Below, piece by piece: positions 22,471-43,800 of a DNA stretch of 64,000 bases. This stretch comes from Escherichia coli. Its GTDB lineage: Bacteria; Pseudomonadota; Gammaproteobacteria; Enterobacterales; Enterobacteriaceae. Where the stretch lies: the NCBI RefSeq assembly GCF_024223415.1, contig NZ_CP100503.1. One strand, 5' to 3'. Each line of letters starts with the position of its first letter. The stretch's first letter is position 1. The position numbers and the translations under genes are program-made. The notes beneath the pieces were generated by a model. It made no database searches. It saw only the letters and a list, made by a program, of their open reading frames with translations, and was not told where the DNA came from.

Positions 22471-22692
22471 ATGGCTACTATCCCTACCCCAACTCATCCT
22501 GAATTTATCTGGCGCTTTTACTCCTGCCAAAAACGTCACTATCACTTCGTTATTGCACCAACAGAAGATGAGGCCCGCTCTCAGCTTCCTGACGCCCCAT
22601 GTATTTTCTCTGCCCGTTTTTCCACTGATTCACGCAATTCTCTCAGTTACTGGTGCCTCCCTGTTAACGCTTCTGCTCAGGAGGGACTATGA
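22471..22692 (+). CDS. icd: Icd-like protein (73 aa), translationally coupled to ant
   Basis: 73-codon ORF (MATIPTPTHPEFIWRFYSCQKRHYHF...) with ATGA overlap to ant; AGGAGG SD. The 119-aa track ORF 22333..22692 is an upstream extension across the RNA gene. Confidence 0.6.
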   Translation: MATIPTPTHPEFIWRFYSCQKRHYHFVIAPTEDEARSQLPDAPCIFSARFSTDSRNSLSYWCLPVNASAQEGL

Positions 22693-23804
22693 GAACGTCA
22701 TTAGTCACCCGTGAAGAGATGATCGAGGCAATTGAACAGCACACTGCCTGTATCAGTACCAGGGATATACCGGGCGTTATTGCCAACTACTTCATGATCA
22801 CCAAACAACTTTACCGGAGAAAGGACAAGAACGCGGTTCACCGCATTCTGCTAACCGATATCCGCGAATACCTGCTCGAACAGGGTCATCTGAATTACGC
22901 AACCGTCGCAGCCGAAACACGCAAGGAGGCACACAGAATGAAAGCAACTAACGTTAAATCAGAAAAAATTCATGCAACTTCAGTTCAGGAATCAGAGCTG
23001 GTGGTTGTTCAGAATCAGTCTGATGAAATTCCCGTTCTGGAATGGCTGGGAGTGCGTGTAGTGACAACCAAGATCCTTGCTAAGGGGTATGGGACCGATG
23101 CGGATAACATCAAGAAGAACTTTTCCCGTAATGCTGAACGTTTTTGTGAAGGCAAGCATTTCTATAAAGTTATTGGAGATGATTTGAACAATTTGCGGGT
23201 GACTTTAAGTAACTCACAAAATCCCATCTCTCCTAAAGCCCGTTCACTCATCCTCTGGACAGAACGCGGCGCTGCCCGTCACGCTAAAATGCTCGAAACC
23301 GATCAGGCATGGGCATTCTTTGAAAAACTGGAAGACAGCTACTTCCGGCAAAAAGAACAGCAACCGGTTGCAATCCCCCAAACATTACCAGAAGCCCTAC
23401 GCCTGGCTGCCGAACTGGCTGAACAAAAGCAGCTTCTGGAACAGAAAGCCCACCAGCTAAATCAGCAGCTGGTGGCCGCCGCTCCTAAGGTCGATTTTGC
23501 CGACCGGGTATCAGTAGCTAAAGGGATCCTGATTGGGAATTTTGCAAAGGTTGTTGGACTTAAGCAAAACGCGCTGTTTGCCTGGTTACGGGAGAACGGC
23601 ATCCTGATAGCGTCCGGTGGACGTAAAAATGTGCCGTTCCAGCAGTACATCAACGCGGGGTATTTCACGGTGAAAGAAGTGGTGCTGGATGATGAAGATG
23701 GCTACCAGATACGGTTGACGCCTCAATTAACGGGTAAAGGCCAGCAGTGGTTGACGCGTAAACTGCTCGATGCTGGCTTGTTAAAACCGGTGGCGGCTGA
23801 ATAA
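22689..23804 (+). CDS. ant: Antirepressor Ant-like protein, paralog i (371 aa; AntA/Bro-N-like central domain, conserved Ant C-terminal domain)
   Basis: Conserved N-terminal 85 aa and C-terminal about 150 aa shared with four other genes in the window; immI-type context. Confidence 0.65.
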   Translation: MRTSLVTREEMIEAIEQHTACISTRDIPGVIANYFMITKQLYRRKDKNAVHRILLTDIREYLLEQGHLNYATVAAETRKEAHRMKATNVKSEKIHATSVQESELVVVQNQSDEIPVLEWLGVRVVTTKILAKGYGTDADNIKKNFSRNAERFCEGKHFYKVIGDDLNNLRVTLSNSQNPISPKARSLILWTERGAARHAKMLETDQAWAFFEKLEDSYFRQKEQQPVAIPQTLPEALRLAAELAEQKQLLEQKAHQLNQQLVAAAPKVDFADRVSVAKGILIGNFAKVVGLKQNALFAWLRENGILIASGGRKNVPFQQYINAGYFTVKEVVLDDEDGYQIRLTPQLTGKGQQWLTRKLLDAGLLKPVAAE

Positions 23805-23836
23805 TGGAAGAATGCCCGGTTGATGCCGGGCATAAT

Positions 23837-24688
23837 TTATTGCGCGCTTTCGGGGTTGTCGTTTACTGGCTGCCCCTTCTTGGTTTTACGGCTGCGCGTA
23901 ACTGATGCGGCTGACTTAACCTTTTTCTCTTCGCGAGTGATGGCAATTTGTTTTTTTACATTTTCAATATCTGCCAGGCGATATATTTTTGCTTGCGGCC
24001 AGCGGTCGCAGATGATCGGTTCTATGGAGTCATAAAGGCTAAATTTTGCTTTTTCGAATTCACCGTTGATGATAATTCCATCACGGAGAGTTTCATCGCA
24101 GATAAACACGCCACACAGTGGCACATGGTAACTCACTGATTTACCGTTATTGTAGTTAGGACTACTGGAGATGTAGTGAACGCGCAGCATTGTTTCGCTA
24201 AAGCCGTGTACGCGCATACGGAATTTTTCATCCTCCGGGTACTGCTTCATTAGCTCTTTTGTTGCTTCCAGGTTCTCTATGTATTTCGCACTGTGCTCAT
24301 TGAACCCCGCGCTTTTTTGGATGCGAATGTCCTTATCAATCAGATGAATAATGCGGCCAGCGGTCATGTTGACGCTGTTTACAGCTTCTGTCTGATAGGT
24401 CGTAACCTTACGCACACCGCGAAGGATGTTAGGCACAGGATATAAAATAGTCTTTGGGATATTGAGGTCTGGGTACTGTTCCAGTTCCCGCGCCATTAAA
24501 GTCCATTTATCAATTTCAGCCTGAATGCTGTCAGTTTCTTTGAACGGTAGAACGACAACCGGGCGTACAGGACGACCGTCGCTGGCTGTATCAACGTGTT
24601 GGGCGCGTGCAACAGCTTTTTTTAGAAAGAGATCCCTGAAGCTGACGAACTCCTGGTACAGTTGTTCGCCGTAGACATAATTTATCAT
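23837..24688 (-). CDS. c1: C1 repressor of lysogeny (283 aa)
   Basis: MINYVYGEQLYQEFVSFRDLFLKKAVARAQHVD... near-identical to P1 C1 as I recall; 283 aa. Confidence 0.92.
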   Translation of the reverse strand: MINYVYGEQLYQEFVSFRDLFLKKAVARAQHVDTASDGRPVRPVVVLPFKETDSIQAEIDKWTLMARELEQYPDLNIPKTILYPVPNILRGVRKVTTYQTEAVNSVNMTAGRIIHLIDKDIRIQKSAGFNEHSAKYIENLEATKELMKQYPEDEKFRMRVHGFSETMLRVHYISSSPNYNNGKSVSYHVPLCGVFICDETLRDGIIINGEFEKAKFSLYDSIEPIICDRWPQAKIYRLADIENVKKQIAITREEKKVKSAASVTRSRKTKKGQPVNDNPESAQ

Positions 24689-24798
24689 TGATCCTCCTCC
24701 AGAATTGACATGGTCAATAACGCCCGGCTGAGAAAACCGGTCATTACTGACCTATATTATAGAGGGATCAAACAAAAATAATAGATTTATTAGTGCAT

Positions 24799-25008
24799 TT
24801 ATTGTGAGTCTAACTGGTTAGTTGCCATGAGATATTCGATTGTGTCAGTGAGGTCATCCAGGTCGTCTTGGGTGATGCGGTACTCCTGATTGGATATCTT
24901 TGAGTAGTGTTCAGCAATGGCGCGGGCAGCGTCGGTTTCGGCAGGGTCTACAGATAAAGCGTTAGAGCAATATCTAACGTCGTCGATGGTTGGTTGAATG
25001 AAAGCCAT
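24799..25008 (-). CDS. coi: C1 inactivator Coi (69 aa)
   Basis: 69-aa ORF immediately upstream of c1 on the same strand, as in P1. Confidence 0.7.
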   Translation of the reverse strand: MAFIQPTIDDVRYCSNALSVDPAETDAARAIAEHYSKISNQEYRITQDDLDDLTDTIEYLMATNQLDSQ

Positions 25009-25247
25009 AATTATGCCTCACTGTATTGACAACACAGAGCCTGAAGCTCTGACCTACTGTTTCACCCATAATCCATGCTGGGGGTAATCTAACAACATTG
25101 CGCTGTGTGTAAGATGAGCAATGCATAGCTGTAATGCCGTTGTATAAGGTTTCCCTGTTTGCTCATTTCCTTCTGAGCCGCTCTACAACGCTGAAGACAC
25201 ATTAAATAGTGAATCCAAAGTCGTATTACGTAACGGCGGCAAAACTA

Positions 25248-25661: not shown

Positions 25662-25964
25662 ATGAAGATTATTTCGGTAAAAACATTGAGGGATTTTTGG
25701 TCTGTGAATCCCGATGCAGAACAACCATTAAAGGCCTGGGTTGACGAAGTCTCCAAGGCCACCTGGAAAAGCCCGGCTGATATCAAAGCGCAGTACCGAT
25801 CTGCCAGCATTCTTAAAAACAGGCGGGTTGTCTTCAACATCAAAGGTAATGACTACAGATTAATTGTTGCAATTGCTTATCAGCGAGGATGGATGTTCGT
25901 TAAGTTTATTGGAACACATAAGGAATACGATGCCATCGACGCGGATACAATAGAGCTGGAGTAA
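25662..25964 (+). CDS. higB: HigB-like RelE/ParE-superfamily toxin (100 aa)
   Basis: Small basic protein (…KGNDYRLIVAIAYQRGWMFVKFIGTHKEYD) upstream of an HTH antitoxin; toxin-first order typical of HigBA. Confidence 0.6.
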   Translation: MKIISVKTLRDFWSVNPDAEQPLKAWVDEVSKATWKSPADIKAQYRSASILKNRRVVFNIKGNDYRLIVAIAYQRGWMFVKFIGTHKEYDAIDADTIELE

Positions 25965-25967
25965 ATC

Positions 25968-26327
25968 ATGAACATTAAACCTATCCGTACAGAACAAGAT
26001 TATCAGGCCGCACTACGCGCGGTCGAACCTATGTTCGATAACGAACCGGAAATGAACACCCCGGAAGGTGATTTCTTTGAGATAATGTGCCTGCTTATTG
26101 AAGAGTATGAAAAAAGACATTACCCAATTGAACCGCCTACACCCATTGAAGCGATTAAGTTCCGTATGGAACAGCAAGGGTTGACAGTGAAAGATCTGGA
26201 ACCGGCGATTGGTAAGTCGAACCGTGTTTACGAAGTTCTGAATGGAACGCGAAATTTAACGTTACCAATGATTAGGCGTTTGCACGTACAGTTTGGCATT
26301 CCTCTCGAAAGTCTGGTTGGTGTGTGA
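25968..26327 (+). CDS. higA: HigA-like HTH (XRE-family) antitoxin (119 aa)
   Basis: C-terminal helix-turn-helix (…LEPAIGKSNRVYEVLNGTRNLTLPMIRRL…); 3-bp gap after toxin gene. Confidence 0.6.
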   Translation: MNIKPIRTEQDYQAALRAVEPMFDNEPEMNTPEGDFFEIMCLLIEEYEKRHYPIEPPTPIEAIKFRMEQQGLTVKDLEPAIGKSNRVYEVLNGTRNLTLPMIRRLHVQFGIPLESLVGV

Positions 26328-26333
26328 CTTAAA

Positions 26334-27386
26334 ATGTCTAATGTCCTGACCGTACACCAAAATTTGCCTGCATTACCGGTCGATGCAACGAGTGATGAGG
26401 TTCGCAAGAACCTGATGGACATGTTCAGGGATCGCCAGGCGTTTTCTGAGCATACCTGGAAAATGCTTCTGTCCGTTTGCCGGTCGTGGGCGGCATGGTG
26501 CAAGTTGAATAACCGGAAATGGTTTCCCGCAGAACCTGAAGATGTTCGCGATTATCTTCTATATCTTCAGGCGCGCGGTCTGGCAGTAAAAACTATCCAG
26601 CAACATTTGGGCCAGCTAAACATGCTTCATCGTCGGTCCGGGCTGCCACGACCAAGTGACAGCAATGCTGTTTCACTGGTTATGCGGCGGATCCGAAAAG
26701 AAAACGTTGATGCCGGTGAACGTGCAAAACAGGCTCTAGCGTTCGAACGCACTGATTTCGACCAGGTTCGTTCACTCATGGAAAATAGCGATCGCTGCCA
26801 GGATATACGTAATCTGGCATTTCTGGGGATTGCTTATAACACCCTGTTACGTATAGCCGAAATTGCCAGGATCAGGGTTAAAGATATCTCACGTACTGAC
26901 GGTGGGAGAATGTTAATCCATATTGGCAGAACGAAAACGCTGGTTAGCACCGCAGGTGTAGAGAAGGCACTTAGCCTGGGGGTAACTAAACTGGTTGAGC
27001 GATGGATTTCTGTCTCTGGTGTAGCTGATGATCCGAATAACTACCTGTTTTGCCGCGTCAGAAAAAATGGTGTTGCCGCGCCATCACCCACCAGCCAGCT
27101 ATCAACTCGCGCCCTGGAAGGGATTTTTGAAGCAACTCACCGATTGATTTACGGGGCTAAGGATGACTCTGGCCAGAGGTACCTGGCCTGGTCTGGACAC
27201 AGTGCCCGTGTCGGAGCCGCGCGAGATATGGCCCGCGCCGGAGTTTCAATACCGGAGATCATGCAAGCTGGTGGCTGGACCAACGTAAATATTGTCATGA
27301 ACTATATCCGTAACCTGGATAGTGAAACAGGGGCAATGGTGCGCCTGCTGGAAGTTGACATCCTCCCCCACCTTCGCACTTCGTGA
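26334..27386 (+). CDS. cre: Cre tyrosine recombinase with IS-altered C-terminus (350 aa vs 343 in P1)
   Basis: MSNVLTVHQNLPALPVDATSDEVRKNLMDMFRDRQAFSEHTWK... matches P1 Cre through ...MVRLLE; last residues VDILPHLRTS are encoded by the inserted IS end. Confidence 0.9.
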   Translation: MSNVLTVHQNLPALPVDATSDEVRKNLMDMFRDRQAFSEHTWKMLLSVCRSWAAWCKLNNRKWFPAEPEDVRDYLLYLQARGLAVKTIQQHLGQLNMLHRRSGLPRPSDSNAVSLVMRRIRKENVDAGERAKQALAFERTDFDQVRSLMENSDRCQDIRNLAFLGIAYNTLLRIAEIARIRVKDISRTDGGRMLIHIGRTKTLVSTAGVEKALSLGVTKLVERWISVSGVADDPNNYLFCRVRKNGVAAPSPTSQLSTRALEGIFEATHRLIYGAKDDSGQRYLAWSGHSARVGAARDMARAGVSIPEIMQAGGWTNVNIVMNYIRNLDSETGAMVRLLEVDILPHLRTS

Positions 27387-27405
27387 CTCAGGAGGGGGAT
27401 TCCCA

Positions 27406-28638
27406 TTAGTGGGTGACGGCTGATTGCTCAGCGTCTGGTTCCTGCTTCAACGGGCGGTCTGACTGCACCGTCCCTCCACAGGCAAGTACGGCGTGCCCCG
27501 CCGCTAAAATGTTGCGAGCGCCGTTTACATCGGCGTTCGCTGTATATCCACAAGCCCGACACACGAATTTACTTTGTGTCAGGCGGTTTTCTTTCGCTGT
27601 ATGACCACAGCACGCGCAACGCTGGCTTGTGTACGCTGGCGGAACAGCAAGCACCTGACCACCACGCCAGAGCTGCTTGTACTCAAGCTGGCGGCGCATT
27701 TCATACCAGCCCTGATCCAGTATCGAACGGTTTAAACCTGATTTTGCCCGGACATTGCGCCCCGGCTGGCTGACCGTACCCGCTGCTGACTTTGACATGT
27801 TGCTGACCTTCAAATCCTCAATGACTATCATTGCGTGGTTTTTGCTGACGGTCGTTGTGACTTTGTGAAGGTAGTCCCTGCGGATATTTGCAATACGGGA
27901 ATGCAGTTGCTGTATTTTGCGTTTCTGCTTCTGCCAGTTGTTGCTGAATTTGACCCTGCGGCTTAACTGTCGCTGAAGTCTCGCCAGCTTCTTCTGGTTT
28001 TTCTGAAAACTGTTTACAGGTTCAAAGACTGTGCCATCTGACAGCGTGGCGAGTTTAGCCACGCCAGCATCCAGACCGACTATCGTTGTGCTTGTGTGAT
28101 TTGGTTCTGCCGTTTCAATTTCAACCTGAAACGAGATATACCACTGTCCCGCTAACTGACTGATTGTCGCATTTTTGATTTTACCGTTCACACGTTGAGA
28201 TTGCCGGAATTTTACCCACCCAAGACCTGACGGTAGCTTCACTCTGCGATTTTCAAGGCAGCAATATTTCTCAAAGTTCACAAAACGGATTGAGTCTCTG
28301 CCCTCATTTTTTCGTTTCCATACCGGAGCCTTAGCTGCGAGCTTTTTATCAAAACAACGTTTCCATGCGGTATGCAGGTCTTTCAGCTTTTGTTGCAGAT
28401 TGTCGGTATAAGCATCCTGTAAGAAGATATATTCCGGCATTTTTTTCCACACTGTAATCATCCGGTTCAACTCGAAAGCCGAAGGTAACTTTTCGCCTGA
28501 GCCAAGTACGCGCTTTGTCTCCGCAAGACCTAAATTCCAGACAAAACGGGCGCAACCACATAACTGCCGCAAACGCTGCGACTGTTCATGCGTTGGTTCC
28601 AGTCTGAATTTGTAGGCTTTCAGGATTAGCATCATCAT
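27406..28638 (-). CDS. tnpB: TnpB (RuvC-like, RNA-guided nuclease family) of IS-A (410 aa)
   Basis: RuvC motifs ([29 protein letters not shown]) and CxxC...CxxC zinc finger; C-terminal half near-identical to the IS-B TnpB. Confidence 0.85.
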
Positions 28639-28690
28639 TCAGTGTGTAGTAGATTTTCTTGCAATATTACTGTTTTTACGGCCAACCTCA

Positions 28691-29095
28691 ATGCAAAAAT
28701 ACAAAATCAATCGTTCAAGACATGCTGCCTTCCTTTTGCATGTTCATCTTGTCTTTGTAACAAAATACCGTCGAAAGATACTGGGAGAGTTACACTGTGC
28801 AGCATTCCATCAGTATGCAGCAGAAGTCTGCCGTGACTTTGGGGCAGAACTTAAAGAAAGTAACGGAGATGTCGATCATGTCCACATGCTGATCGAATAC
28901 CCACCAACAGTGCAGCTTTCGGTACTGGTTAACTCACTGAAAGCAGTGACATCCCGCCGTCTGCGAAACGAATTTCTTGATTTGCGGGGGGCATACGGAA
29001 AAGCCGTGCTCTGGTCGAGGTCATACTTTGCTGGCTCCTGCGGAGGTGCGCCGCTGGAAGTTGTGAAGCAATATATTCAACATCAGCGAGGCTGA
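28691..29095 (+). CDS. tnpA: TnpA Y1 (HUH) transposase of IS-A (134 aa)
   Basis: HVHLVF (HUH) motif and IS200-like size. Confidence 0.8.
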   Translation: MQKYKINRSRHAAFLLHVHLVFVTKYRRKILGELHCAAFHQYAAEVCRDFGAELKESNGDVDHVHMLIEYPPTVQLSVLVNSLKAVTSRRLRNEFLDLRGAYGKAVLWSRSYFAGSCGGAPLEVVKQYIQHQRG

Positions 29096-29200
29096 GCACC
29101 CTTCGGGCTTTTCAAGCCCGTCCAAATTCCCCTGCCGCCTTATGTCGGCGGGAGTACCCTTTGGAAGTTAAGATGGCGATTAGCCATTAACGCGTAAATG

Positions 29201-29233: not shown

Positions 29234-29545
29234 ATGAGAAAGGATTTCAACATCGACGGAAAATATGTAGTGCTGTCTGTAAGCACTAATATTCAGTCGC
29301 CAGCCGTCATTGTCACTGTAAAGCTGAGCGATAGAATACCTGATATTGACTCAATATCCGTTGCGTTCCCTGTCAAAAGTATTCGTAGTGCTGAACATTT
29401 CGTGATGAATGCCACCGAGGAAGAAGCACGGCGCGGTTTTGCTAAAGTGATGTCTGAGTTTGGCGAACTCTTGGGTAAGGTTAACAATGTCCTTTCAATC
29501 AGTTCAGCAAGGTCCAAAGCGTTAACAGCTTCCATGATGAAATAA
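29234..29545 (+). CDS. Hypothetical protein (103 aa)
   Basis: ORF with upstream operator-like motif; no motif recognised. Confidence 0.35.
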   Translation: MRKDFNIDGKYVVLSVSTNIQSPAVIVTVKLSDRIPDIDSISVAFPVKSIRSAEHFVMNATEEEARRGFAKVMSEFGELLGKVNNVLSISSARSKALTASMMK

Positions 29546-29569
29546 AAAAAGCCTGGCAAGGAGCCAGGC
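29544..29569 (-). terminator. Rho-independent terminator candidate for ant paralog ii (A-run, GCCTGGC-loop-GCCAGGC on plus)
   Basis: 7-bp stem; T-run follows on minus strand. Confidence 0.5.
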
Positions 29570-29759
29570 TGCACAAAAGAGCGGGTTTGTATTCCGCATC
29601 CAATCAATCAAGAAGGAGTATAGCACACAGGTACTGAAGTGAAAAAATGTGATTCGCGATTAACAAAATATCTACCATTGCTCTAATTGATTGATATAAT
29701 TAAGCCGCAGTTTTTGTCAACTACGAAGACATTGCCATTATAGACTCCGTGACATCATT

Positions 29760-29783
29760 GGCGGCCGAAAGGCCGCCTTTTTT
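29760..29783 (+). terminator. Rho-independent terminator candidate (GGCGGCC-GAAA-GGCCGCC-T6)
   Basis: GC-rich 7-bp stem, tetraloop, T6. Confidence 0.55.
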
Positions 29784-29785
29784 AA

Positions 29786-30850
29786 TCATTCAGCCGCCAC
29801 AGGTTTTAACAAGCCAGCATCGAGCAGTTTACGCGTCAACCACTGCTGGCCTTTCCCCGTTAATTGGGGCGTCAGCCGTATCTGGTAGCCCTCTTCATCA
29901 TCCAGCACCACTTCTTTCACTGTGAAATATCCGGCGTTTATGTACTGCTGGAACGGTACATTTTTACGTCCACCGGACGCTATCAGGATGCCGTTCTCCC
30001 GTAACCAGGCAAACAGCGCGTTTTGCTTAAGTCCAACAACCTTTGCAAAATTCCCAATCAGGATTCCATTAGCCACTGATACCCGGTCGGCAAAATCGAC
30101 TTTAGGAGCGGCGGCCACCAGCTGCTGATTTAGCTGGTGGGCTTTCTGTTCCAGAAGTTGCTTTTGTTCAGCCAACTCGGCAGCCAGGCGGAGGGCTTCG
30201 GGGAGTGTCTGGGGGATCGCTGGAGAAGCAGCGCTAACCTGCTGCAACTCCTCCAGCTTGTCGATCAACGAACGGCGGACCGCTTTTGACTCGCGCGCGG
30301 CAACTCGCAGGGCTTGTTTGTAGGTCATGGTTATGACCTCAAAAGAGCGCCCAGCCCTTGTGCCATGGGATTTTACGAAAGTTTCGTAAAATTCCCCATC
30401 AAGTTCATCCTTAATTCTATTGAGAAAATCGTTATTGCGGATCTCATTTTCCCCACATAGCTTGCGCGCCTCATTGACCATCTTTAACAGTGTCTGGCTG
30501 TCGATTGTGTCGCCCGTACTGGGGATAACATCCATGGCTGGTAGTGGTGTGGATTCTATCAAAGGCTTTGTAACGACAACATCTGGTTTGCTTGCTTTCA
30601 TTCTGTGTGCCTCCTTGCGTGCTTCGGCGGTTACGGTTGCATAATCAAGACGACCCTGTTCGAGCAGGTATTCACGGATATCAGTTAGCAGAATGCGGTG
30701 AACCGCGTTCTTGTCCTTTCTCCGGTAAAGTTGTTTGGTGATCATGAAGTAGTTGGCTATAACACCAGGAATGTCCCTGGCGCTGATACAGATTGTGTGC
30801 TGTTCAATAGCCTCGATCATTTCTTCACGGGTAACTAATGACGTTCTCAT
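29786..30850 (-). CDS. ant: Antirepressor Ant-like protein, paralog ii (354 aa; Rha-like central domain)
   Basis: Shares N- and C-terminal domains with paralogs i and iii; different central domain; coupled to icd. Confidence 0.65.
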   Translation of the reverse strand: MRTSLVTREEMIEAIEQHTICISARDIPGVIANYFMITKQLYRRKDKNAVHRILLTDIREYLLEQGRLDYATVTAEARKEAHRMKASKPDVVVTKPLIESTPLPAMDVIPSTGDTIDSQTLLKMVNEARKLCGENEIRNNDFLNRIKDELDGEFYETFVKSHGTRAGRSFEVITMTYKQALRVAARESKAVRRSLIDKLEELQQVSAASPAIPQTLPEALRLAAELAEQKQLLEQKAHQLNQQLVAAAPKVDFADRVSVANGILIGNFAKVVGLKQNALFAWLRENGILIASGGRKNVPFQQYINAGYFTVKEVVLDDEEGYQIRLTPQLTGKGQQWLTRKLLDAGLLKPVAAE

Positions 30851-31068
30851 AGCCCCTCCTGAGCAGAAGCGTTAACAGGGAGGCACCAGTAACTGAGAGA
30901 GTTGCGCGAGTCAGTAGAAAAGCGTGCAGAGAAAATGCAGGGAGCGTCAGGAAGCTGAGAACGGGCCTCATCTTCTGTTGGTGCAATGACGAAGTGATAG
31001 TGACGTTTTTGACAAGAATAGAAGCGCCAGATAAATTCCGGGCGTGCGCAAGGATTGGCATTAACCAT
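30847..31068 (-). CDS. icd: Icd-like protein (73 aa), module ii
   Basis: MVNANPCARPEFIWRFYSCQKRHYHF...; ATGA overlap with ant. Confidence 0.6.
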   Translation of the reverse strand: MVNANPCARPEFIWRFYSCQKRHYHFVIAPTEDEARSQLPDAPCIFSARFSTDSRNSLSYWCLPVNASAQEGL

Positions 31069-31118
31069 AGTTACGGCCTCACAAGTTGAATTAACAACCT
31101 GCTACCCGCTGTCAAACA

Positions 31119-31195
31119 GGTGGCAGGACGTGACAGGGTTGACAGACTGGCACTTGTGAAACCAGCAGGCCGAAGCCTCCCCATCACGCCCCACC
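31119..31195 (-). ncRNA. c4: c4-like antisense repressor RNA, module ii (about 77 nt)
   Basis: Same scaffold as module iii but a'/b' are CTGTCAA/CACAAGT, with matching targets TTGACAG/ACTTGTG. Confidence 0.6.
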
Positions 31196-31385
31196 ATAAT
31201 TCGGGCGTAACGCGGTTTTACGGACACAAAAATACCGCAATAACGGAGTGATGCGGTTGTCCGCACAAGTATTCAGGCTGTCAAACCCGGTCGCAGAATT
31301 TGCTACGACGCAGGAACTATAAGCCTGAACGACGGGAAGATCAATAGTCTGGCGTCCAATAGTAGTTTATTTGTTCCAATAAATC

Positions 31386-31402
31386 AAATTTATTAGAGCA
31401 AT
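31386..31402 (-). promoter_or_regulatory. C1 operator, exact consensus on minus strand (ATTGCTCTAATAAATTT)
   Basis: Exact 17-bp match; precedes c4/icd/ant module ii. Confidence 0.6.
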
Positions 31403-32752: not shown

Positions 32753-32769
32753 ATTGCTCTAATAAATTT
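32753..32769 (+). promoter_or_regulatory. C1 operator, exact consensus ATTGCTCTAATAAATTT
   Basis: Exact 17-bp match upstream of c4/icd/ant module iii. Confidence 0.6.
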
Positions 32770-32959
32770 GATTTTTTAGGGCAAATAAACTACCATTGCG
32801 CACTGCCCTATTGATCTCCTTACCGTTCAGGCTTATATTCATGCCGTCGTAGCAAATTCTGCGACCGGGTTTAGCAGCCTGAATACTTACGCGGACAACC
32901 GCAGATATCCGATATTGCGGTATTTTCATGTCCGTATAACCGCGTTACGCCCGAATTAT

Positions 32960-33036
32960 GGTGGGGCGTGATGGGGAGGCTTCGGCCTGCTGGTTTCGTA
33001 AGTGCCAGTCTGCTAACCCCGTCACGTCCTGCCACC
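32960..33036 (+). ncRNA. c4: c4-like antisense repressor RNA, module iii (about 77 nt)
   Basis: Carries CGTAAGT (32997) and CTGCTAA (33010) complementary to ACTTACG (32885, 33069) and TTAGCAG (32871, 33039); the last overlaps the icd SD. Confidence 0.6.
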
Positions 33037-33086
33037 TGTTTAGCAGCGGGTCGCAGGTTGTTTTATCAACTTACGAGGCCGTAACT

Positions 33087-33308
33087 ATGGTTAATGCCAA
33101 TCCTTGCGCACGCCCTGAATTTATCTGGCGCTTTTACTCCTGCCAAAAACGTCACTATCACTTCGTTATTGCACCAACAGAAGATGAGGCCCGCTCTCAG
33201 CTTCCTGACGCCCCATGTATTTTCTCTGCCCGCTTTTCCACTGATTCGCGCAACTCTCTCAGTTACTGGTGCCTCCCTGTTAACGCTTCTGCTCAGGAGG
33301 GACTATGA
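33087..33308 (+). CDS. icd: Icd-like protein (73 aa), module iii
   Basis: 73 codons; stop overlaps ant start. Confidence 0.6.
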   Translation: MVNANPCARPEFIWRFYSCQKRHYHFVIAPTEDEARSQLPDAPCIFSARFSTDSRNSLSYWCLPVNASAQEGL

Positions 33309-38100: not shown

Positions 38101-40068
38101 ATCGGCGTACTCCGGCAGGAAACGATAGGTGATCCTGCGATAGTACAGGTCCATGTCAGTACATACGCGGTCCATATCCCTGATTATTGAGAAGATCGGA
38201 CGGGCTTTCTCGTGCTCAATCACGCCGTCTTCATTGACCGAGGTCGTTACGCCATTGTTGGCTTTGGCTGCCGCTTCCGCCTGCTGACGCAATTCTTCAT
38301 ACGCCGCCAGTTGTTCTTCCGTAAGTGGTGCATCCTGCTGGTGTTCGTCCAGTTCCGGGATCTCCACGGTATCCTTAACGTCTTCCGCCGTTTTAAGCGT
38401 TGTCCAGCGATGGAATATGCCGCGCAGCGCATCAAGGTTTTCAAAGCCCACCAGCGCCATTTTTTCTTCAACTTCACCGCTAATTTTCTGTACCGTTTCC
38501 AGCCTGGTCTTGCCGAAGAATTTAACGAAGTCATCAGGACCGTAGATCCCCATCTTCTGCCAGTATTCCTTCGGCAGCACATGAGAAAGCATGTTGTATG
38601 CATCGATCGGGGTGTTAACGACTGGCGTTGCAGTCAGGAGAACCGGTCCGCGCCCACCATTCTTTTTCATCAGGTACGCGTTTTTAATTGCCATATCCCG
38701 CGCCGATTGCGCCACCGCGCTGGTGGGCAGATAGGCCAGTTGTGACGCTTCGCGACCATTTTTATAGCTATTGCGGTAGTTGTGACCTTCGTCAGCGATC
38801 ACACTATCGAAGCCCATATCCTCAAAGTACGGATACTTCTCTGCTTTTTCGGTGCCGGTATCTGAATACTCCGACAATACCCGGCGACGCGCGGCCTCTT
38901 TGCGGTGGGAGTCGGAGTCCATTGCGCTGGCTACGCGCCCGGCGGCAACGAAGTCATAAAGCATATCCTGTGCATGCTCATCTACGGTGTCATCACGTAG
39001 CGGAATGCGGGCGTATTGTTCTTTGGTAAACACGACTGCACGGTAATTTGAGTGCGGGATCGCGTTCATCCGCGCCGTGATAGTGGCTTCATCTGCCAGC
39101 TTAAGAGCATCGCGCATAACTGGAGTGCCATCAGTACCAAGAACAGGTTTACCGTTCTCATTGAGCACCGGCACCTGGCGAATCTGATCGCCATCCATCA
39201 GCACATCAAGACCGACGAACAGGTAGTTACTGAATGCCTCTTCACTCAGGAACTCTTTTGCTTCGTAATACCAGTTTTCCAGCACTGATTTAGGCACTAC
39301 ATACGCAGTACGGGTGGAACGACCGTTCTCATAGTTGAACGCCTCAAGCGCCAGCGCGGTCGTGGTTTTACCCAGCCCGGTACCGAAGCCCAGGATGCCG
39401 CGCCCATCTTCGGACAGTCGGCGCACCTCGCTATTCTGGTAATCAAATGGCTGTCGCTTACCGCTTAATCCCTTCAACCCAAGCGGATCGCCAGAGTGTT
39501 CATACGGGATATTGCTATTGAACACATCGTTGTATTTGGCAACCAGCTCATCGTAGCGATCGTGCGTCTTGATCCACTTATTGAACTGGTCCTCAAGCAG
39601 TGCCATCTGCTCGCGGTAGCCGTTCGCCGTCGCGCTATCTTTGCCACCGATACGCGCACCATTGAGATACTTTTCCAGCTGTGCCGGGAACCCGGTCGCG
39701 TTTTCACCTGATTTACGGTCCCACTCGTAGCGGATCTCGCCTGTTTCTTTATCCTTGCGCTGGACGACACCGTATCGGTGCCCGACGAACAGACCATCAC
39801 CACCGTGATAGGTGTCAGAAACCATTTCGTCGCCTTCCAGCTGCACTGACTGCACATAGCGAAGATCCGGATAGCCGTTTTCCTGCAAAAATTCCAGAAT
39901 GACGGAACGGTCGAACCAACGGCTATTGAGCTTAAAGCGGATATTCTCTGCTGGCGTCTTGATGCGCTTCTCTTCGATCGCTGCCAGCTGATTAAGGACG
40001 TTGTTCTTTACCCAGTGCGCCGTAAAGCCCCGTCCTTCAGGTCGGGGATATAAGGCGCGGTTTTCCAC
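35179..40068 (-). CDS. DarB-like SF2 helicase-domain protein, 5'-truncated by IS-B (1629 aa; first 19 codons IS-derived)
   Basis: Walker A GFGTGLGKTT and DExH VIADEGHNY; the ORF start lies inside the IS left end (40012-40068), and no methyltransferase-like N-terminal domain (expected from P1 DarB as I recall) is present. Confidence 0.55.
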   Translation of the reverse strand: MENRALYPRPEGRGFTAHWVKNNVLNQLAAIEEKRIKTPAENIRFKLNSRWFDRSVILEFLQENGYPDLRYVQSVQLEGDEMVSDTYHGGDGLFVGHRYGVVQRKDKETGEIRYEWDRKSGENATGFPAQLEKYLNGARIGGKDSATANGYREQMALLEDQFNKWIKTHDRYDELVAKYNDVFNSNIPYEHSGDPLGLKGLSGKRQPFDYQNSEVRRLSEDGRGILGFGTGLGKTTTALALEAFNYENGRSTRTAYVVPKSVLENWYYEAKEFLSEEAFSNYLFVGLDVLMDGDQIRQVPVLNENGKPVLGTDGTPVMRDALKLADEATITARMNAIPHSNYRAVVFTKEQYARIPLRDDTVDEHAQDMLYDFVAAGRVASAMDSDSHRKEAARRRVLSEYSDTGTEKAEKYPYFEDMGFDSVIADEGHNYRNSYKNGREASQLAYLPTSAVAQSARDMAIKNAYLMKKNGGRGPVLLTATPVVNTPIDAYNMLSHVLPKEYWQKMGIYGPDDFVKFFGKTRLETVQKISGEVEEKMALVGFENLDALRGIFHRWTTLKTAEDVKDTVEIPELDEHQQDAPLTEEQLAAYEELRQQAEAAAKANNGVTTSVNEDGVIEHEKARPIFSIIRDMDRVCTDMDLYYRRITYRFLPEYADAVQQLADSLPKQATSEDDDSDDSITQQSQYSLIDKGEFIQLQVPEAFEQEVNKRLARFGIDEQTVTHPVTPKYAKLIATLKEFFPEGKQIIFTDEKTQHQKLKRIICNALNLEPSKVGILNAQTVAEAGKTGKKLKAVKPPKELPDEPTDAQIAKYNEQMALYDAYIAQQNEMSLGGLEKIAADFQEGRTPIIICNKKAEVGINLHRGTTDIHHLTLPWTPASIAQRNGRGARVGSNRASVRVHYYCGKGSFDEYRLKTLKRKAGWISDILRSDKSEMENADANDMIEMQMYTAKDDGERLAMMQVQMDKAKAAQRARQKEQATIDLQNYIKAQHAAGEDVEVLTAELERSKAELEKTTAEVAKFKQAVMAKAADNADWKARWGSVHHTDRMLLAQYRASLKNAIQRKANISQAISRYEKLLNRTQKAATDIKRLRPLVEDAINKGILDVDPDLVNHASEFLVIGDRSWRVGQYYDCAGDIVRIKSLDFDSQRADVEIIFTFKGTKSGNWDVKTLDKQVDVTPDEDAVMQKISGGVSIAGINDIISCDDFYRFQQRGMIKITDSYGVQTTESGYSIDFVGTYTDPLKHAVYPDRRDGALKSSIAKWVLGMMSEGNNRQIRSAETFLVELFGSNYGDVIASYGDTLSPEAIQEKIADAIARMPEKTSQGATRNGDSELEVTNAIFGTNEFRASDYEITTAQFGTIGIYSNKAEIKQAMDAASARIAAERKANLNHAVAALTQSWVTAIREAATTGKITPAIADVVNDGSKFMDAYQMDAVKLPSAYGQLSYRMTYNLVSMFSDLAILGLVDLNEVTPELLSMRKNHVEILQRINTVLAGRTDEEKQADADRINLALGNITEEEIAARNEKQEELSSIQGDATSIAQSLGLNYRVSTADLKMMYAPKFAAGEVFGLQEASGMKGVLFRAKDAIKAKFGARWLPAKAKNSDFPGNWWIIETKHNVADVLAVIQQYA

Positions 40069-40605
40069 CTAACCAGGTGTTTGCTGTTGTTCAATGTATT
40101 GGCGGATGATGGATATTGGTGCGCCACCGCAGCTACTGGCAAAATAGCTGGGACTCCATAAAACGCCTTTGTAGTAATATCGGGCTGCAATATCTGGTCG
40201 ATCTCGTCGCAATAATCTACTCGATACGCCCTTGAGACTGTTCACCAGGCTGGATATCGCCAATTTGGGGGGATAGTTAATTAGCAGGTGAACGTGATCT
40301 CGTTCTCCATCCATTTCAACCAGTTCAGCTTCAAAATCAGCACATACACTTGAAAAGTAAGTGCGTAGTTTTTCTATTGCGTCATGGTCAAAAATCTGAC
40401 GTCGGTATTTTGCGACAAAGACCAGGTGAACGTGCATCAGGAAGACGCAGTGTCTTCCACGTCGGATATCAGTTTCTTTTTTTATGGACCAAAGTATAAT
40501 TTGGCTTATGAAACGACTACAAGCTTTCAAATTCCAGTTAAGACCAAATGGACAGCAGGAGCGTGAAATGAGGCGCTTCGCGGGCGCATGTCGTTTCGTT
40601 TTCAA
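40069..40605 (-). CDS. tnpA: TnpA Y1 (HUH) transposase of IS-B (N-terminus of track ORF probably over-extended)
   Basis: HVHLVF motif; homologous to IS-A TnpA. Confidence 0.75.
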   Translation of the reverse strand: MKTKRHAPAKRLISRSCCPFGLNWNLKACSRFISQIILWSIKKETDIRRGRHCVFLMHVHLVFVAKYRRQIFDHDAIEKLRTYFSSVCADFEAELVEMDGERDHVHLLINYPPKLAISSLVNSLKGVSSRLLRRDRPDIAARYYYKGVLWSPSYFASSCGGAPISIIRQYIEQQQTPG

Positions 40606-41716
40606 TCGTGCTCTGGCGCTTCAGAATGAGAATCATGAGGCCGGGAACAAATATATTTCTTATGCAAAGATGACTTCCTGGCTGGTTGAATGGAAAAATG
40701 CTACTGAAACGCAATGGCTTAAAGATTCTCCCTCACAGCCATTGCAGCAGTCACTGAAAGACCTTGAGCGAGCCTACAAAAATTTCTTTCAGAAGCGTGC
40801 CTCTTTTCCCCGCTTCAAAAAGCGGGGACAGAATGATGCATTCCGCTATCCGCAGGGCGTTAAGCTCGACCAAGGGAACGGTCGTATTTTTCTGCCAAAA
40901 CTTGGCTGGATGCACTACCGGAACAGCCGTCAGGTCTCGGGGATTGTGAAAAACGTCACTGTCAGCCAGTCCTGCGGTAAGTGGTACATCAGTATTCAGA
41001 CAGAAAGTGAAGTATCAACTCCGGTTCACCCTTCAGCATCAATAGTCGGTCTGGATGCAGGCGTGGCTAAACTCGCCACGCTGTCAGATGGCACAGTCTT
41101 TGAGCCTGTAAACAGTTTTCAGAAAAACCAGAAGACGCTGGCGAGACTTCAGCGACAGTTAAGCCGCAAGGTCAAATTCAGCAACAACTGGCAGAAGCAG
41201 AAATGCAAAATACAGCGACTGCATTCCCGTATCGCAAATATCCGCAGGGACTACCTTCACAAAGTCACAACGACCGTCAGCAAAAACCACGCCATGATAG
41301 TCATTGAGGATTTGAAGGTCAGTAACATGTCAAAGTCAGCAGCGGGTACGGTCAGCCAGCCGGGGCGCAATGTCCGGGCAAAATCAGGTTTAAACCGTTC
41401 GATACTGGATCAGGGCTGGTATGAAATGCGCCGTCAGCTTGAGTACAAGCAGCTCTGGCGAGGCGGTCAGGTGCTTGCGGTTCCGCCAGCGTACACAAGC
41501 CAGCGTTGCGCGTGCTGTGGTCATACAGCGAAAGAAAACCGCCTGTCACAAAGTCAATTCAGATGCCAGGTATGTGGATATACAGCGAACGCCGATGTAA
41601 ACGGCGCTCGTAACATTTTAGCGGCGGGGCACGCCGTTCTTGCCTGTGGAGGGATGGTGCAGTCAGGCCGCCCGTTGAAGCAGGAACCCACCGAAATGAT
41701 TCAGGCGACAGCCTGA
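40484..41716 (+). CDS. tnpB: TnpB of IS-B (410 aa)
   Basis: RuvC-like motifs and zinc finger. Confidence 0.85.
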
Positions 41717-41752
41717 ACGTAGCAGGAATCCACGTCCTTCAGGGCGTGGAGG

Positions 41753-42835
41753 ATGTCAATGGAGCCTCCCCTTCTCTGCCGACGTTCAGGGGGGTTTATG
41801 AAAACACCTCTCGTCACCCGTAATGACATAGCCGAAGCGATCGCCCTGCATACTGCCTGTATGCCGACACGGGAGATCCCCGGCGCAATTGCCAACTATT
41901 TCATGATAACCAGACGTTTTTATACCCGAACAGATAAGGCTGTGATCAACAAGCTACTGATAGCCGAGATCAGGGATTATTTGATTGAACAAGGACGTCT
42001 ACGTTACGCAACAGTGGCAGCAGAAATGAGAAAGGAGGCACATAGAATGACCGGTAATAATTTAAATGTTGAAAAACCAGCACCTGTTGCTTCAGCTACG
42101 CCAGCACCAGCCGTGAATATCATCCCCAACACCGGAGACACAATCGACAGCCTGACACTGTTAAAGATGGTCAATGAAGCGCGTAAGTTATGTGGGGAAC
42201 CAGAGGTTCGGAACAACAAATTCATCGAAAAAATACTCGATGAGCTTGATGGTGAGCACTACACAAAAAGTGTAGTGGAAAAAATGAACAAAACATCAAT
42301 GCTTGTCATAACCATGACTTTCAAACAAGCCCTGCGAGTCGCCGCGCGCGAGTCAAAAGCGGTCCGCCGTTCGCTGATCGACAAACTGGAAGAATTACAG
42401 CAGGCAAACTCACCTACCCCATCGATCCCCCAGACATTACCAGAAGCCCTACGCCTGGCTGCCGAGTTGGCAGAACAGAAAATGCAGCTGGAACAACAGC
42501 TGGTGGCCGCAGCCCCTAAAGTCGATTTTGCCGACCGGGTATCAGTGGCCAATGGAATCCTGATCGGGAACTTTGCAAAGGTCGTTGGACTTAAGCAAAA
42601 CGCCCTTTTCTCATGGTTGCGCCAGAACGGCATTCTCATGGCTTTTGGTGCGCGCAAAAACGTACCGCGCCAACAGTACATCAACGCCGGGTATTTCACG
42701 GTGAAAGAAGTGGTGCTGGATGATGAAAATGGCTACCAGATACGGCTGACGCCCCAATTAACGGGTAAAGGCCAGCAGTGGTTAACTCGCAAGCTACTTG
42801 ATGCTGGTTTGTTAAAACCAGTAGCAATAGGTTAA
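41753..42835 (+). CDS. ant: Antirepressor Ant-like protein, paralog iv (likely start MKTPLVTRN near 41798); upstream icd reduced to its last 14 codons by IS-B
   Basis: Rha-like central domain similar to paralog ii; the sequence right after the IS end is homologous to the icd 3' end. Confidence 0.6.
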   Translation: MSMEPPLLCRRSGGFMKTPLVTRNDIAEAIALHTACMPTREIPGAIANYFMITRRFYTRTDKAVINKLLIAEIRDYLIEQGRLRYATVAAEMRKEAHRMTGNNLNVEKPAPVASATPAPAVNIIPNTGDTIDSLTLLKMVNEARKLCGEPEVRNNKFIEKILDELDGEHYTKSVVEKMNKTSMLVITMTFKQALRVAARESKAVRRSLIDKLEELQQANSPTPSIPQTLPEALRLAAELAEQKMQLEQQLVAAAPKVDFADRVSVANGILIGNFAKVVGLKQNALFSWLRQNGILMAFGARKNVPRQQYINAGYFTVKEVVLDDENGYQIRLTPQLTGKGQQWLTRKLLDAGLLKPVAIG

Positions 42836-42841
42836 CAAAAG

Positions 42842-42873
42842 AAAAAAACCTGCCAGCAAACTGGCAGGTTTCT
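42842..42873 (+). terminator. Hairpin ACCTGCCAG-CAAA-CTGGCAGGT with flanking A/T runs
   Basis: 9-bp perfect stem after ant paralog iv. Confidence 0.5.
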
Positions 42874-42913
42874 GAGCAGATCGTCCAACCCGATCTGGAT
42901 CGAGCCAGAAAAA

Positions 42914-42930
42914 TTTGCTCTAATAAATTT
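42914..42930 (+). promoter_or_regulatory. C1-operator-like motif TTTGCTCTAATAAATTT upstream of kilA-repL
   Basis: 16/17 consensus match about 70 bp upstream of kilA. Confidence 0.55.
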
Positions 42931-42999
42931 CGTTTTCTAAGTGCAAAGAATCACCATTTCGAGCTGGTGATTGAAGGTTGATGCAAATTTGGAGAAAAA

Positions 43000-43800
43000 A
43001 TGCAACAAACATTCAATGCGGATATGAATATATCAAACCTTCATCAAAATGTCGATCCTTCAACCACTCTGCCTGTTATTTGTGGTGTTGAAATTACGAC
43101 CGACCGCGCTGGCCGTTACAACCTTAATGCTCTACACAGAGCGAGCGGACTCGGTGCCCATAAAGCGCCAGCTCAATGGCTAAGAACGCTGTCAGCCAAA
43201 CAGCTCATCGAAGAGCTGGAAAAAGAAACTATGCAGAATTGCATAGTTTCGTTCGAAGGCCGTGGCGGCGGCACTTTTGCCCATGAATTGCTCGCTGTGG
43301 AGTACGCAGGCTGGATTTCTCCCGCGTTTCGGCTGAAGGTAAACCAGACATTTATCGACTATCGAACCGGAAGATTACAACCTGCTATTCCGCAGAGTCT
43401 CCCTGAAGCTCTCCGTTTGGCTGCCGACCTGGCAGAGCAAAAGCAACGGCTGGAGCAAAAAATGCTTATGGATGCACCTAAAGTCGAATTCGCTGAACGC
43501 GTTGCTACCGCCAGCGGGGTTCTAATCGGCAACTATGCCAAAGTGCTCGGCCTGGGCCAAAACTATCTCTTCACCTGGTTGCGTGATAACGGAATTCTGA
43601 TCGCAACCGGTGAACGCAGGAACGTCCCCAAACAAGAATACATATCTCGTGGGTATTTCACCCTTAAAGAAACCGTGATCGATACAAGCAATGGAAGCAG
43701 GATTTCTTTCACGACTCGTATAACCGGCAAAGGTCAGCAGTGGCTGATGAAGCGATTGCTTGATGCTGGTGTGCTGGTACCTGTCGCGGCAACGCGCTAA
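43000..43800 (+). CDS. kilA: KilA (KilA-N domain plus Ant-type C-terminal domain, 266 aa)
   Basis: Length and position (upstream of repL) as in P1; C-terminal domain homologous to the ant paralogs. Confidence 0.75.
   Translation: MQQTFNADMNISNLHQNVDPSTTLPVICGVEITTDRAGRYNLNALHRASGLGAHKAPAQWLRTLSAKQLIEELEKETMQNCIVSFEGRGGGTFAHELLAVEYAGWISPAFRLKVNQTFIDYRTGRLQPAIPQSLPEALRLAADLAEQKQRLEQKMLMDAPKVEFAERVATASGVLIGNYAKVLGLGQNYLFTWLRDNGILIATGERRNVPKQEYISRGYFTLKETVIDTSNGSRISFTTRITGKGQQWLMKRLLDAGVLVPVAATR

Follow-up and report, generated by a model that had tools for sequence, protein, structure and literature searches.

Paralogous immI-type antirepressor operons with different C4 RNA codes in a P1-like phage-plasmid of Escherichia coli

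Between positions 22689 and 43800 of a 64,000-nucleotide stretch of Escherichia coli DNA (contig NZ_CP100503.1 of RefSeq assembly GCF_024223415.1), which we call the window, lie five genes for antirepressor-like proteins: four ant paralogs, numbered i to iv in order of position, and kilA. Why should one replicon carry four related antirepressor genes, and how are they controlled? The answer that we consider probable is that the genes belong to four paralogous immI-type antirepressor operons, followed by kilA, which are gated by C4 antisense RNAs, independently coded and built by recombination, the fourth operon having been damaged by an insertion sequence (IS). The textbook example of a phage immunity whose specificity is set by an antisense RNA is the heteroimmunity between P1 and P7, and to our knowledge only two C4 specificities have been studied so far. 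The C4/icd/ant mechanism and the antirepression of the repressor C1 by Ant1 and Ant2, which act jointly against it (PMC8546580), are summarized elsewhere (PMC8546580, PMC12197685).

By its sequence, the window is a P1-like phage-plasmid: in a megablast search, positions 22000–44000 matched phage P1, P7, and many P1-like plasmids at 95–98% identity. The nearest complete record, the E. coli plasmid pMTY1886_untypable_1 (NZ_CP128972.1, hereafter pMTY1886), carries the same four cassettes and is collinear with the window save for insertions and one large discontinuity.

Three complete immI-type operons

An alignment of the upstream regions of paralogs i–iii that also includes P1 and the canonical locus of pMTY1886, which is intact, reveals what the first-pass annotation of this DNA had overlooked: each of the three genes is part of a complete immI-type operon of ~1.7 kb (Table 1). 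The order of the parts is the same in the three cassettes. A C1 operator and a promoter-like site are followed by a leader, which carries two target boxes and ends in a hairpin with a U-run, and by the C4 antisense RNA; then come the same two boxes at the ribosome site of icd, a 73-codon icd-like open reading frame (ORF), and the nested ant1/ant2. The second downstream box overlaps the icd Shine-Dalgarno sequence. This is the part order of the immI region of P1 and P7 (Op51/P51, c4, icd, ant1/ant2, then kilA-repL), and the GenBank record of P7 annotates the same series, Op(c4), c4, icd, ant1, and ant2. Except in the recognition boxes, a base-for-base alignment with P1 is obtained for the leaders of both cassette ii and cassette iii.

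Eight C1 operator sites were found in the window, against 0.03 expected. The sequence ATTGCTCTAATAAATTT is present without change at the operators of cassettes ii and iii, and the operator of cassette i, TTTGCTCTAATAAATTG, shows two mismatches; directly upstream of paralog iv no C1 operator was detected, and an IS is found there instead. The C4 family (Rfam RF01695) matches the three cassettes with 75.9 (i), 70.8 (iii), and 68.6 bits (ii), the gathering score being 45, and gives no match upstream of paralog iv within the window. The icd-like ORFs match NF033153 (49.8 bits for cassette i, with a cut-off of 25). Their stop codons overlap the start codons of ant within an ATGA (22689–22692, 30847–30850, and 33305–33308), an arrangement from which translational coupling of icd and ant would be expected.

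A second start is nested in each ant gene. In P1, Ant2 begins at an internal in-frame ATG (annotation of X15639), the Met of the motif EAHRM. This Met, at codon 84, and an AAGGAGG sequence 8 nt upstream of it are conserved in paralogs i–iv and in P1. The N-terminus shared by the paralogs is thus the Ant1-specific extension of 83 aa, and by analogy with P1 two products, one long and one short, are probably made from each paralog.

Recognition codes of the C4 RNAs

The C4 genes of cassettes ii and iii and of P1 differ solely in two short loop segments (Table 1). Written as hexamer/dinucleotide, the code is ACAAGT/TC for cassette ii and GTAAGT/CT for cassette iii, compared with ACTAAC/TC for P1 and ACAATC/CT for P7; neither extra code is that of P1 or P7. 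In cassettes ii and iii and in P1, both copies of each box are the exact reverse complement of the cassette's own loops, with 7/7 Watson-Crick pairs per element, while non-cognate combinations of loop and box among the three contain mismatches. The loops of cassette i (CCTTGGAC and GGCCAA) also pair fully with their own boxes, with one G-U pair per element. Since each cassette has a different code, the cassettes should be controlled independently.

Allowing any loop sequence, we searched IMG/VR for the conserved core of C4 and retrieved 117 stretches, which together with the window and pMTY1886 hold 122 cassettes. Twelve loop codes occur among these 122 (seven hexamers by two dinucleotides), and, essentially without exception, complete loci have upstream and downstream boxes that are an exact match to the loops. 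For three elements to co-vary exactly in 12 codes, pairing must be under selection. In the i-type lineage, which is nearly monomorphic, the one variant co-varies with its targets likewise. The code is independent of the insertion slot, with six codes found in the canonical slot alone, and operator-to-terminator cassettes occupy at least six insertion positions in P1-like plasmids. In PLSDB, which holds about 570 complete P1-like plasmids, cassettes of this kind are present in about 348 plasmids at an identity of at least 90%. Within the 12-code C4 set, all codes differ from one another in 10/10 contigs and 15/15 genomes that have more than one cassette. The complete plasmid NZ_CP013030.1, for instance, carries four cassettes, all with different codes and partly in other slots (29374–30704 and 72380–73632, loci L152/L153), which are situated between lyz and pro and upstream of ban/dnaB.

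The C4-icd module is also found without an Ant. In 16 IMG/VR loci (e.g., L008, L011, L026, and L028) it carries several of the same codes and precedes an unrelated protein of ~235 aa; the RNA switch has therefore been reused with other effector genes. A 313-aa relative in locus L012, with the same N-terminal sequence as the ~235-aa protein, matches Phage_pRha (PF09669).

Domain composition of the antirepressors

The five ORFs that the first-pass annotation had placed at 22689, 29786, 33305, 41753, and 43000 are all present. It had described the four Ants as almost identical at both ends, which is true of three of them. Protein alignment of the N-terminal 84 aa gives 99% identity between i and iii, 93% between i and ii, and 94% between ii and iii, whereas paralog iv is only 61–63% identical to the others. 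The C-terminal ~146 aa are 97–99% identical among i, ii, and iii, with lower values of 88–91% between iv and these three. KilA has the same C-terminal domain, as had been proposed, with a match to PF03374 and 65–67% identity to the Ants, and it does not possess the N-terminal 84-aa region. According to Pfam, ANT/KilAC (PF03374) is present in all five proteins (best E-value 4.9e-32) and KilA-N (PF04383) in KilA only (E 5.1e-21). All five are placed in antirepressor families by PHROGs.

The central regions do fall into two classes: identity is 74% between i and iii, 63% between ii and iv, and 8–20% for the cross-class pairs. Profile-profile comparison of the two classes detected no sequence relation (hhalign probability 0.1%, from shallow alignments with Neff about 1.9). 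The names given to these classes need revision. The centre of i and iii, labeled AntA/Bro-N-like, matches neither AntA (PF08346) nor Bro-N (PF02498) at E ≤ 0.1, two families absent at this threshold from all five proteins, and is an ORF6N domain instead (PF10543, E 1.1e-17 to 5.1e-20, residues 117–201 of i). The centre of ii and iv matches no Pfam family, ORF6N included. Its label, Rha-like, is not borne out by the family model, since Phage_pRha (PF09669) matches neither protein at E ≤ 0.1, and may be fair as a description of the fold. A stand-alone homolog of the ii/iv centre matches no Pfam family, and gives no match to Rha even at E ≤ 10. A true Rha protein that follows C4-icd in other loci does match PF09669, and its hhalign alignment to the ii/iv profile is weak and off-domain.

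The AlphaFold2 model of paralog ii predicts three separate folded parts: an N-domain of four helices (residues 8–86), a centre with the topology beta-alpha-alpha-beta-beta-alpha-alpha (115–206), and KilAC (276–344). With the full-length model, Foldseek returned nothing significant from the PDB. Because the pTM of this multi-domain model is only 0.28, the search was redone with the central domain modeled alone (pLDDT 78.7). Against AFDB50, the predicted domain is similar, with a TM of about 0.8, to the N-terminal domains of many KilAC antirepressors of ~230–260 aa; two of the matches are annotated as Rha family (34–36% identity, E about 1e-7), on annotation only. Sequence searches of the PDB gave no solved relative for paralog ii, and profile searches of the PDB with the ORF6N proteins and with the full-length Ant and KilA family gave none either.

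The ORF6N centre is 70–80% identical to very common stand-alone ORF6N proteins of ~185 aa from enterobacterial genomes, which are widespread on E. coli and Salmonella chromosomes and in chromosomal prophages; some are fused to the P22 antirepressor C-domain. The homolog search with the N-domain returned mostly fragments and says little on its wider occurrence. A hypervariable patch is present in the centre of both domain classes. The variable centre, whether ORF6N or P1-Ant type, is likely the target-recognition module.

Recombination among the cassettes

Long DNA repeats in both orientations had been noted in the first-pass annotation, which considered domain shuffling and segment inversion by homologous recombination plausible. 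The repeats are confirmed: i and iii are in direct orientation, and both are inverted relative to ii. The direct repeat of i and iii spans 22498–23835/33114–34448, with 91% identity overall. The inverted repeats are 30592–31402/32753–33563 (811 nt, 90%), 23370–23815/29775–30220 (446 nt, 94%), 29775–30220/33983–34428 (446 nt, 93%), and 22498–22947/30592–31041 (450 nt, 91%). The longest perfect runs measure 122 nt for i/iii, 107 nt for i/ii and for ii/iii, and 35–51 nt for the pairs with iv; between the ant genes and kilA no perfect run of 30 nt or more was found. Repeats of such length and identity cannot be due to chance. The outer ends of the 811-nt repeat fall exactly on the two operators, so that the repeated unit is the operon head and not the gene alone.

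Shuffling of modules by recombination is supported, as the natural combinations of ends, centres, and codes vary. Along the identity profile, cassettes i and iii are unrelated before mid-icd and then 95–100% identical, with a divergent patch inside ORF6N; cassette i shows a sharp identity jump at 22498 and is of the P1-plasmid type from mid-icd onward. Cassettes ii and iii resemble each other in the leader, icd, and the N-domain and once more in KilAC, with unrelated centres in between. In IMG/VR, about 70 full-length Ant genes lie behind C4-icd, and these combine N-type, centre, C-type, and code in many ways, including Ants with an i-like N-terminus and a P1-like C-terminus. In loci L057 and L078, a 469-aa Ant carries both centres in tandem, the P1-Ant type followed by ORF6N, and is a direct product of recombination between the two central classes. 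The code is exchanged as well. Over positions 30850–31402, cassette ii of the window differs from that of pMTY1886 (locus L003, 19840–20460) in a ~210-nt tract alone, with flanks 100% identical, and this tract alters the C4 loop and both target boxes jointly, from ACAAGT in the window to GTAAGT in pMTY1886: it is a conversion tract that re-codes the switch.

In the slot between pacB and c1, a 1.7-kb cassette replaces about 25 nt of the empty site, without target duplication. The window and pMTY1886, whose orthologous cassettes are about 100% identical as against 91–98% for paralogs, are too close a pair to inform on concerted evolution. Across IMG/VR, the cassettes of slots 2 and 3 form one pool (about 94–96% identity), apart from those of the canonical slot 4 (about 65%, N-domain); the corresponding C-terminal comparison across slots was ungapped and rough.

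The damaged canonical locus

Paralog iv is the canonical copy, and together with kilA it represents the P1 locus itself, with 91–98% nucleotide identity to P1 records. Its ORF is open in frame back to 41753, over a remnant of icd, and its true start is probably 41798, as in P1 Ant1 (MK.PLVTR). The IS at 40007–41759, whose tnpB reads towards ant iv, fuses a truncated darB to the last 13 codons of icd; as a result, the canonical ant1/2 is here devoid of operator, promoter, C4, and most of icd. When compared with pMTY1886, about 32 kb of backbone is missing at this darB-IS-icd junction, comprising tail fibers, baseplate, lysis genes, and Op-c4-icd, so that the phage-plasmid from which the window comes may be defective. 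The darB-IS-ant junction is not spanned by any PLSDB record.

The window contains three elements of the IS200/IS605 family (27358–29169, 40007–41759, and 62287–64000), all of which have both tnpA and tnpB. Between the second and the third, which are in direct orientation, identity is 99.5%; the first has only 647 nt, at 96%, in common with them. The three elements bracket large rearrangements of the P1 backbone.

Comparison with known systems

The kind of system is not new: P1 immI, the KilAC domain, and the shuffling of modules among phage regulators are all known, and extra icd-ant genes already appear in annotations and in the literature. Iyer, Koonin, and Aravind reportedly described in 2002 how domains are shuffled among phage proteins of the KilA-N, Bro-N, ORF6N, Rha, and KilAC (ANT) types. 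What differs in the present case is that the DNA being shuffled is nearly identical and belongs to a single replicon and plasmid family, that the recombination tracts are visible, and that an Ant1-specific N-domain and an RNA control module take part. Compared with P1, the window carries three additional copies elsewhere, in the pacB-c1 gap and in the ref and res-mod slots of P1. The N-domains of the extra Ants are only about 62% identical to that of P1, ORF6N takes the place of the P1 central domain in i and iii, and the canonical copy has lost operator, c4, and icd to the IS.

The extra genes bear the PGAP names "Icd-like" and "KilAC domain-containing antirepressor". Venturini et al. (2019, PMC6906374) mention "homologs of P1 icd-ant1/2" for the res-mod region of pSvP1 and, for pTZ20_1P and RCS47, an ant gene that lies with two short ORFs between pacB and c1. 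In the searchable literature, we did not find described the C4 RNAs, codes, nested starts, central classes, and mosaicism of the extra copies, the stacking of different codes in one replicon, or the fact that the shared N-terminus corresponds to the Ant1 extension.

The leader of cassette i is of the isrK type, which is also present in the isrK-orf45-anrP locus of Gifsy-1 in Salmonella (PMC4825925). In Gifsy-1, the stop codon of a short ORF overlaps the start of an antirepressor-like gene (AUGA), translation of which is coupled to that of the upstream ORF, and the small RNA is reported to activate translation in trans; no C4 role is given in that paper (PMC4825925). Unlike the locus reported there, cassette i has a bona fide C4 match between its isrK-like leader and icd.

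Proposed working and alternative explanations

From the homology with P1 and P7, we infer how the cassettes would work. Each operon would be transcribed from a C1-controlled promoter, and the C4 RNA would be cut out of the transcript. Through its two loops, C4 would then pair with the boxes at the icd ribosome site and block the translation of icd, in which case neither transcription nor translation of ant would follow. A C4 that is titrated, or that finds no matching boxes, would allow Ant1 and Ant2 to accumulate and inactivate a repressor; C1 is presumed to be both the target of the Ant proteins and the regulator of the cassette operators. The family would have been built, and reshuffled, by homologous recombination with short conversion tracts between cassettes. 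Stacked orthogonal cassettes might serve superinfection conflicts between related phage-plasmids: the more C4 types a resident has, the more incoming ant operons it would silence, and the more ant operons an element carries, the more resident C4 types it would escape.

A more far-reaching version can be offered tentatively, as possible but less likely than not. The cassettes might constitute a combinatorial RNA "lock-and-key" immunity, with at least 12 codes plus a second C4 lineage, at least six slots, and up to four code-avoiding cassettes, that is driven by an arms race and in which some ORF6N Ants may be aimed at unrelated prophages. Residents would then stack C4 types to silence the antirepressors of invaders, and invaders would stack ant operons with swapped target-recognition domains to escape.

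Several observations weigh against the reading of four independently coded antirepressor operons. The C4 RNA of cassette iii could pair with the first box of cassette ii via two G-U pairs, and in pMTY1886 cassettes ii and iii share the first-box hexamer; to judge by these sequences, the orthogonality of the cassettes may be partial. Code exclusion within genomes is suggestive only, because the random-draw null is naive and ignores relatedness: drawing codes from the pool gives "all different" in 1.6% of trials for the 15 genomes, which are partly related, and in 9% for the contigs alone. One contig (L150, IMG/VR 2698536372_000019), the only one seen with one code twice, has two tandem i-type cassettes of the same code about 1.57 kb apart. 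Paralog iv is without visible control, which is hard to square with stable lysogeny unless the gene is silent or the element defective. The function of the Ant proteins of the extra cassettes is read across from P1, and inactivation of C1 by Ant i–iii is suggested by homology, with 63–91% identity to P1 Ant in the N and C domains. Finally, paralogs i and iii may act on repressors other than C1, because their ORF6N centre is so close to the stand-alone ORF6N proteins of prophages.

The first Ant of the tandem pair in L150 has an altered C-terminus, and the pair looks like an unequal-crossover duplicate.

The last of these objections can be extended to an explanation of its own, in which the RNA logic is the same and the extra Ants target repressors of other elements, resident or incoming, for instance those of lambdoid prophages or of heteroimmune relatives of P1; derepression of the plasmid would then trigger or sense other phages. 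The widespread occurrence of stand-alone relatives of the ORF6N centre and the fusion of some of them to the P22 antirepressor C-domain are in its favor, together with the leader of cassette i, which is of the type of Gifsy-1 isrK-orf45-anrP with its antirepressor-like product (PMC4825925), and with the hypervariable patches of both domain classes. All cassettes nevertheless begin with a C1 operator and retain the Ant1 N-domain and the KilAC domain of the C1-binding P1 Ant. We regard this explanation as rather unlikely, and it overlaps with the reading of C4-gated, independently coded operons without being exclusive of it. The extra cassettes could also be redundant or decaying immI duplicates without function of their own, with mosaicism as neutral recombination noise. 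Their positions, in the pacB-c1 gap and in the slots of res-mod and ref, are indeed regions known to vary (PMC6906374), their occupancy differs between plasmids, and paralog iv is clearly damaged. However, cassettes i–iii are intact throughout, in operator, promoter-like site, C4 above the Rfam threshold, and matched boxes as well as in icd, ATGA overlap, internal Shine-Dalgarno sequence with ATG, and full-length ORFs. The selection on pairing that the co-variation of 12 codes requires, and the presence of such cassettes in some 348 PLSDB plasmids, are also at odds with decay, which makes redundancy improbable.

Even more doubtful, to the point of being highly improbable, is that the repeats are mainly substrates for regular inversion of the c1-cre segment (between i and ii) and of the mat segment (between ii and iii). 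Such inversion would amount to a recombinational switch by which, among the plasmids of a single population, promoters and C4 modules are joined anew to different Ant bodies. Both segments are flanked by inverted repeats of 446–811 nt with 90–94% identity and perfect runs of up to 107 nt, exchange in the N-terminal arms would trade central domains between control regions, and combinations of C4 code and central type vary in nature. In contrast to what regular inversion predicts, one marker order and orientation is found in 24/24 informative loci of different sources: no inverted order of pacB, c1, cre, cra, mat, orf105, ulx, and darB was seen in these loci or in pMTY1886, in consensus assemblies that could miss low-frequency inversion. 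The repeats are gene-length homologies, not short crossover sites, and no dedicated recombinase or site was tied to them, an invertase not having been examined closely. Moreover, as orthologs are about 100% identical and paralogs diverge by several percent (see above), the paralogs are not being homogenized. The segment inversion considered plausible in the first-pass annotation is thus not supported by the loci at hand.

An artefact or chance origin of the cassettes can be rejected: the paralogs differ in sequence and recur in complete plasmids, and the C1 operators far exceed expectation.

The cassettes amount to a natural collection of at least 12 RNA-target codes that co-vary exactly with each other, and a single replicon can hold several of these codes. 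They provide a ready test set for asking how small a number of base pairs settles antisense specificity and cross-talk. They also give rise to a concrete hypothesis for the mutual exclusion and induction of phage-plasmids, which are often carriers of resistance genes, and offer a clear case of modular evolution, with independent recombination of RNA code, N-domain, recognition domain, and C-domain.

Coordinates and neighboring features

The cassettes are embedded in a P1-like gene order. The first part of the region comprises pacA, pacB, cassette i, c1, coi, higBA-like genes, cre, an IS, and cra; it is followed by cassette ii on the minus strand, mat, a 105-aa ORF, and cassette iii, and lastly by ulx, the truncated darB, an IS, ant (iv), kilA, and repL. 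The positions of all cassette parts are collected in Table 1.

Table 1. Antirepressor cassettes and associated features, in window positions
Feature	Position	Strand	Details
Cassette i, C1-operator-like site	22137–22153	+	5' edge of the 1.7-kb cassette between pacB and c1
Cassette i, leader	22228–22305	+	Rfam isrK, 60.8 bits (gathering score 50)
Cassette i, upstream boxes	22254–22259; 22270–22277	+	TTGGCC; GTCTAAGG
Cassette i, leader terminator-like hairpin	22284–22300	+	
Cassette i, C4	22329–22416	+	Diverged lineage; loops CCTTGGAC 22373–22380, GGCCAA 22389–22394
Cassette i, downstream boxes	22421–22426; 22452–22459	+	TTGGTC; GTCTAAGG, the latter on the icd Shine-Dalgarno sequence
Cassette i, icd-like ORF	22471–22692	+	73 aa
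Ant paralog i	22689–23804	+	371 aa; Ant1-specific N-domain, ORF6N, KilAC
Ant paralog i, Ant2-like internal start	22938	+	AAGGAGG upstream
c1 repressor gene	23837–24688	-	283 aa; PGAP name in the collinear plasmid pMTY1886
Ant paralog ii	29786–30850	-	354 aa; N-domain, P1-Ant-type centre, KilAC
Ant paralog ii, internal start codon	30599–30601	-	
Cassette ii, icd-like ORF	30847–31068	-	73 aa
Cassette ii, downstream boxes	31080–31115	-	TTGACAG 31109–31115; ACTTGTG 31080–31086; icd ribosome site
Cassette ii, C4	31116–31201	-	First loop CACAAGT 31152–31158, second CTGTCAA 31139–31145
Cassette ii, 5' control region	31264–31402	-	Exact C1 operator 31386–31402
Cassette ii, leader motif	31270–31322	-	Rfam c4-a1b1; boxes TTGACAG 31278–31284, ACTTGTG 31264–31270
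Cassette ii, promoter-like site	31316–31344	-	TTGATC-17-TATAGT
Cassette iii, 5' control region	32753–32891	+	Exact C1 operator 32753–32769
Cassette iii, promoter-like site	32811–32839	+	TTGATC-17-TATATT
Cassette iii, leader motif	32833–32885	+	Rfam c4-a1b1; boxes TTAGCAG 32871–32877, ACTTACG 32885–32891
Cassette iii, C4	32954–33039	+	First loop CGTAAGT 32997–33003, second CTGCTAA 33010–33016
Cassette iii, downstream boxes	33040–33075	+	TTAGCAG 33040–33046; ACTTACG 33069–33075; icd ribosome site
Cassette iii, icd-like ORF	33087–33308	+	73 aa
Ant paralog iii	33305–34417	+	370 aa; N-domain, ORF6N, KilAC; internal start 33554
IS200/IS605-family element	40007–41759		tnpA on -; tnpB 40484–41716 on +
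Ant paralog iv	41798–42835	+	345 aa; canonical P1 Ant1/Ant2; probable start; Ant2 start 42047
C1 operator upstream of kilA-repL	42914–42930	+	Op(rep) in P7 annotation
kilA	43000–43800	+	266 aa; KilA-N and KilAC
P1 C4 loops, for comparison			First CACTAAC, second CTGTCAA

Outside the cassettes, a type I restriction-modification system is encoded on the minus strand at 10761–16796, with hsdR (1038 aa), an hsdS-like gene (412 aa), and hsdM (520 aa); the hsd genes sit in a ~6.2-kb insertion (10685–16897) that is absent from pMTY1886. The higBA-like genes between c1/coi and cre (25662–26327, plus strand) are named as a HigB toxin and transcriptional regulator pair by PGAP in the collinear plasmid and are without an NCBIfam match. 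Directly 3' of repL, at 44984–45158 on the plus strand, a match to the Rfam sok antitoxin RNA (91.4 bits) indicates a hok/sok-type module.

The same hairpin with a 10-bp stem (CCACCAGCTGCTGATTTAGCTGGTGG) recurs in the KilAC-linker coding region of paralogs i (23450–23475), ii (30115–30140), and iii (34063–34088). It was flagged by the terminator scan on the strand opposite each gene and may simply reflect the repeated coding sequence.

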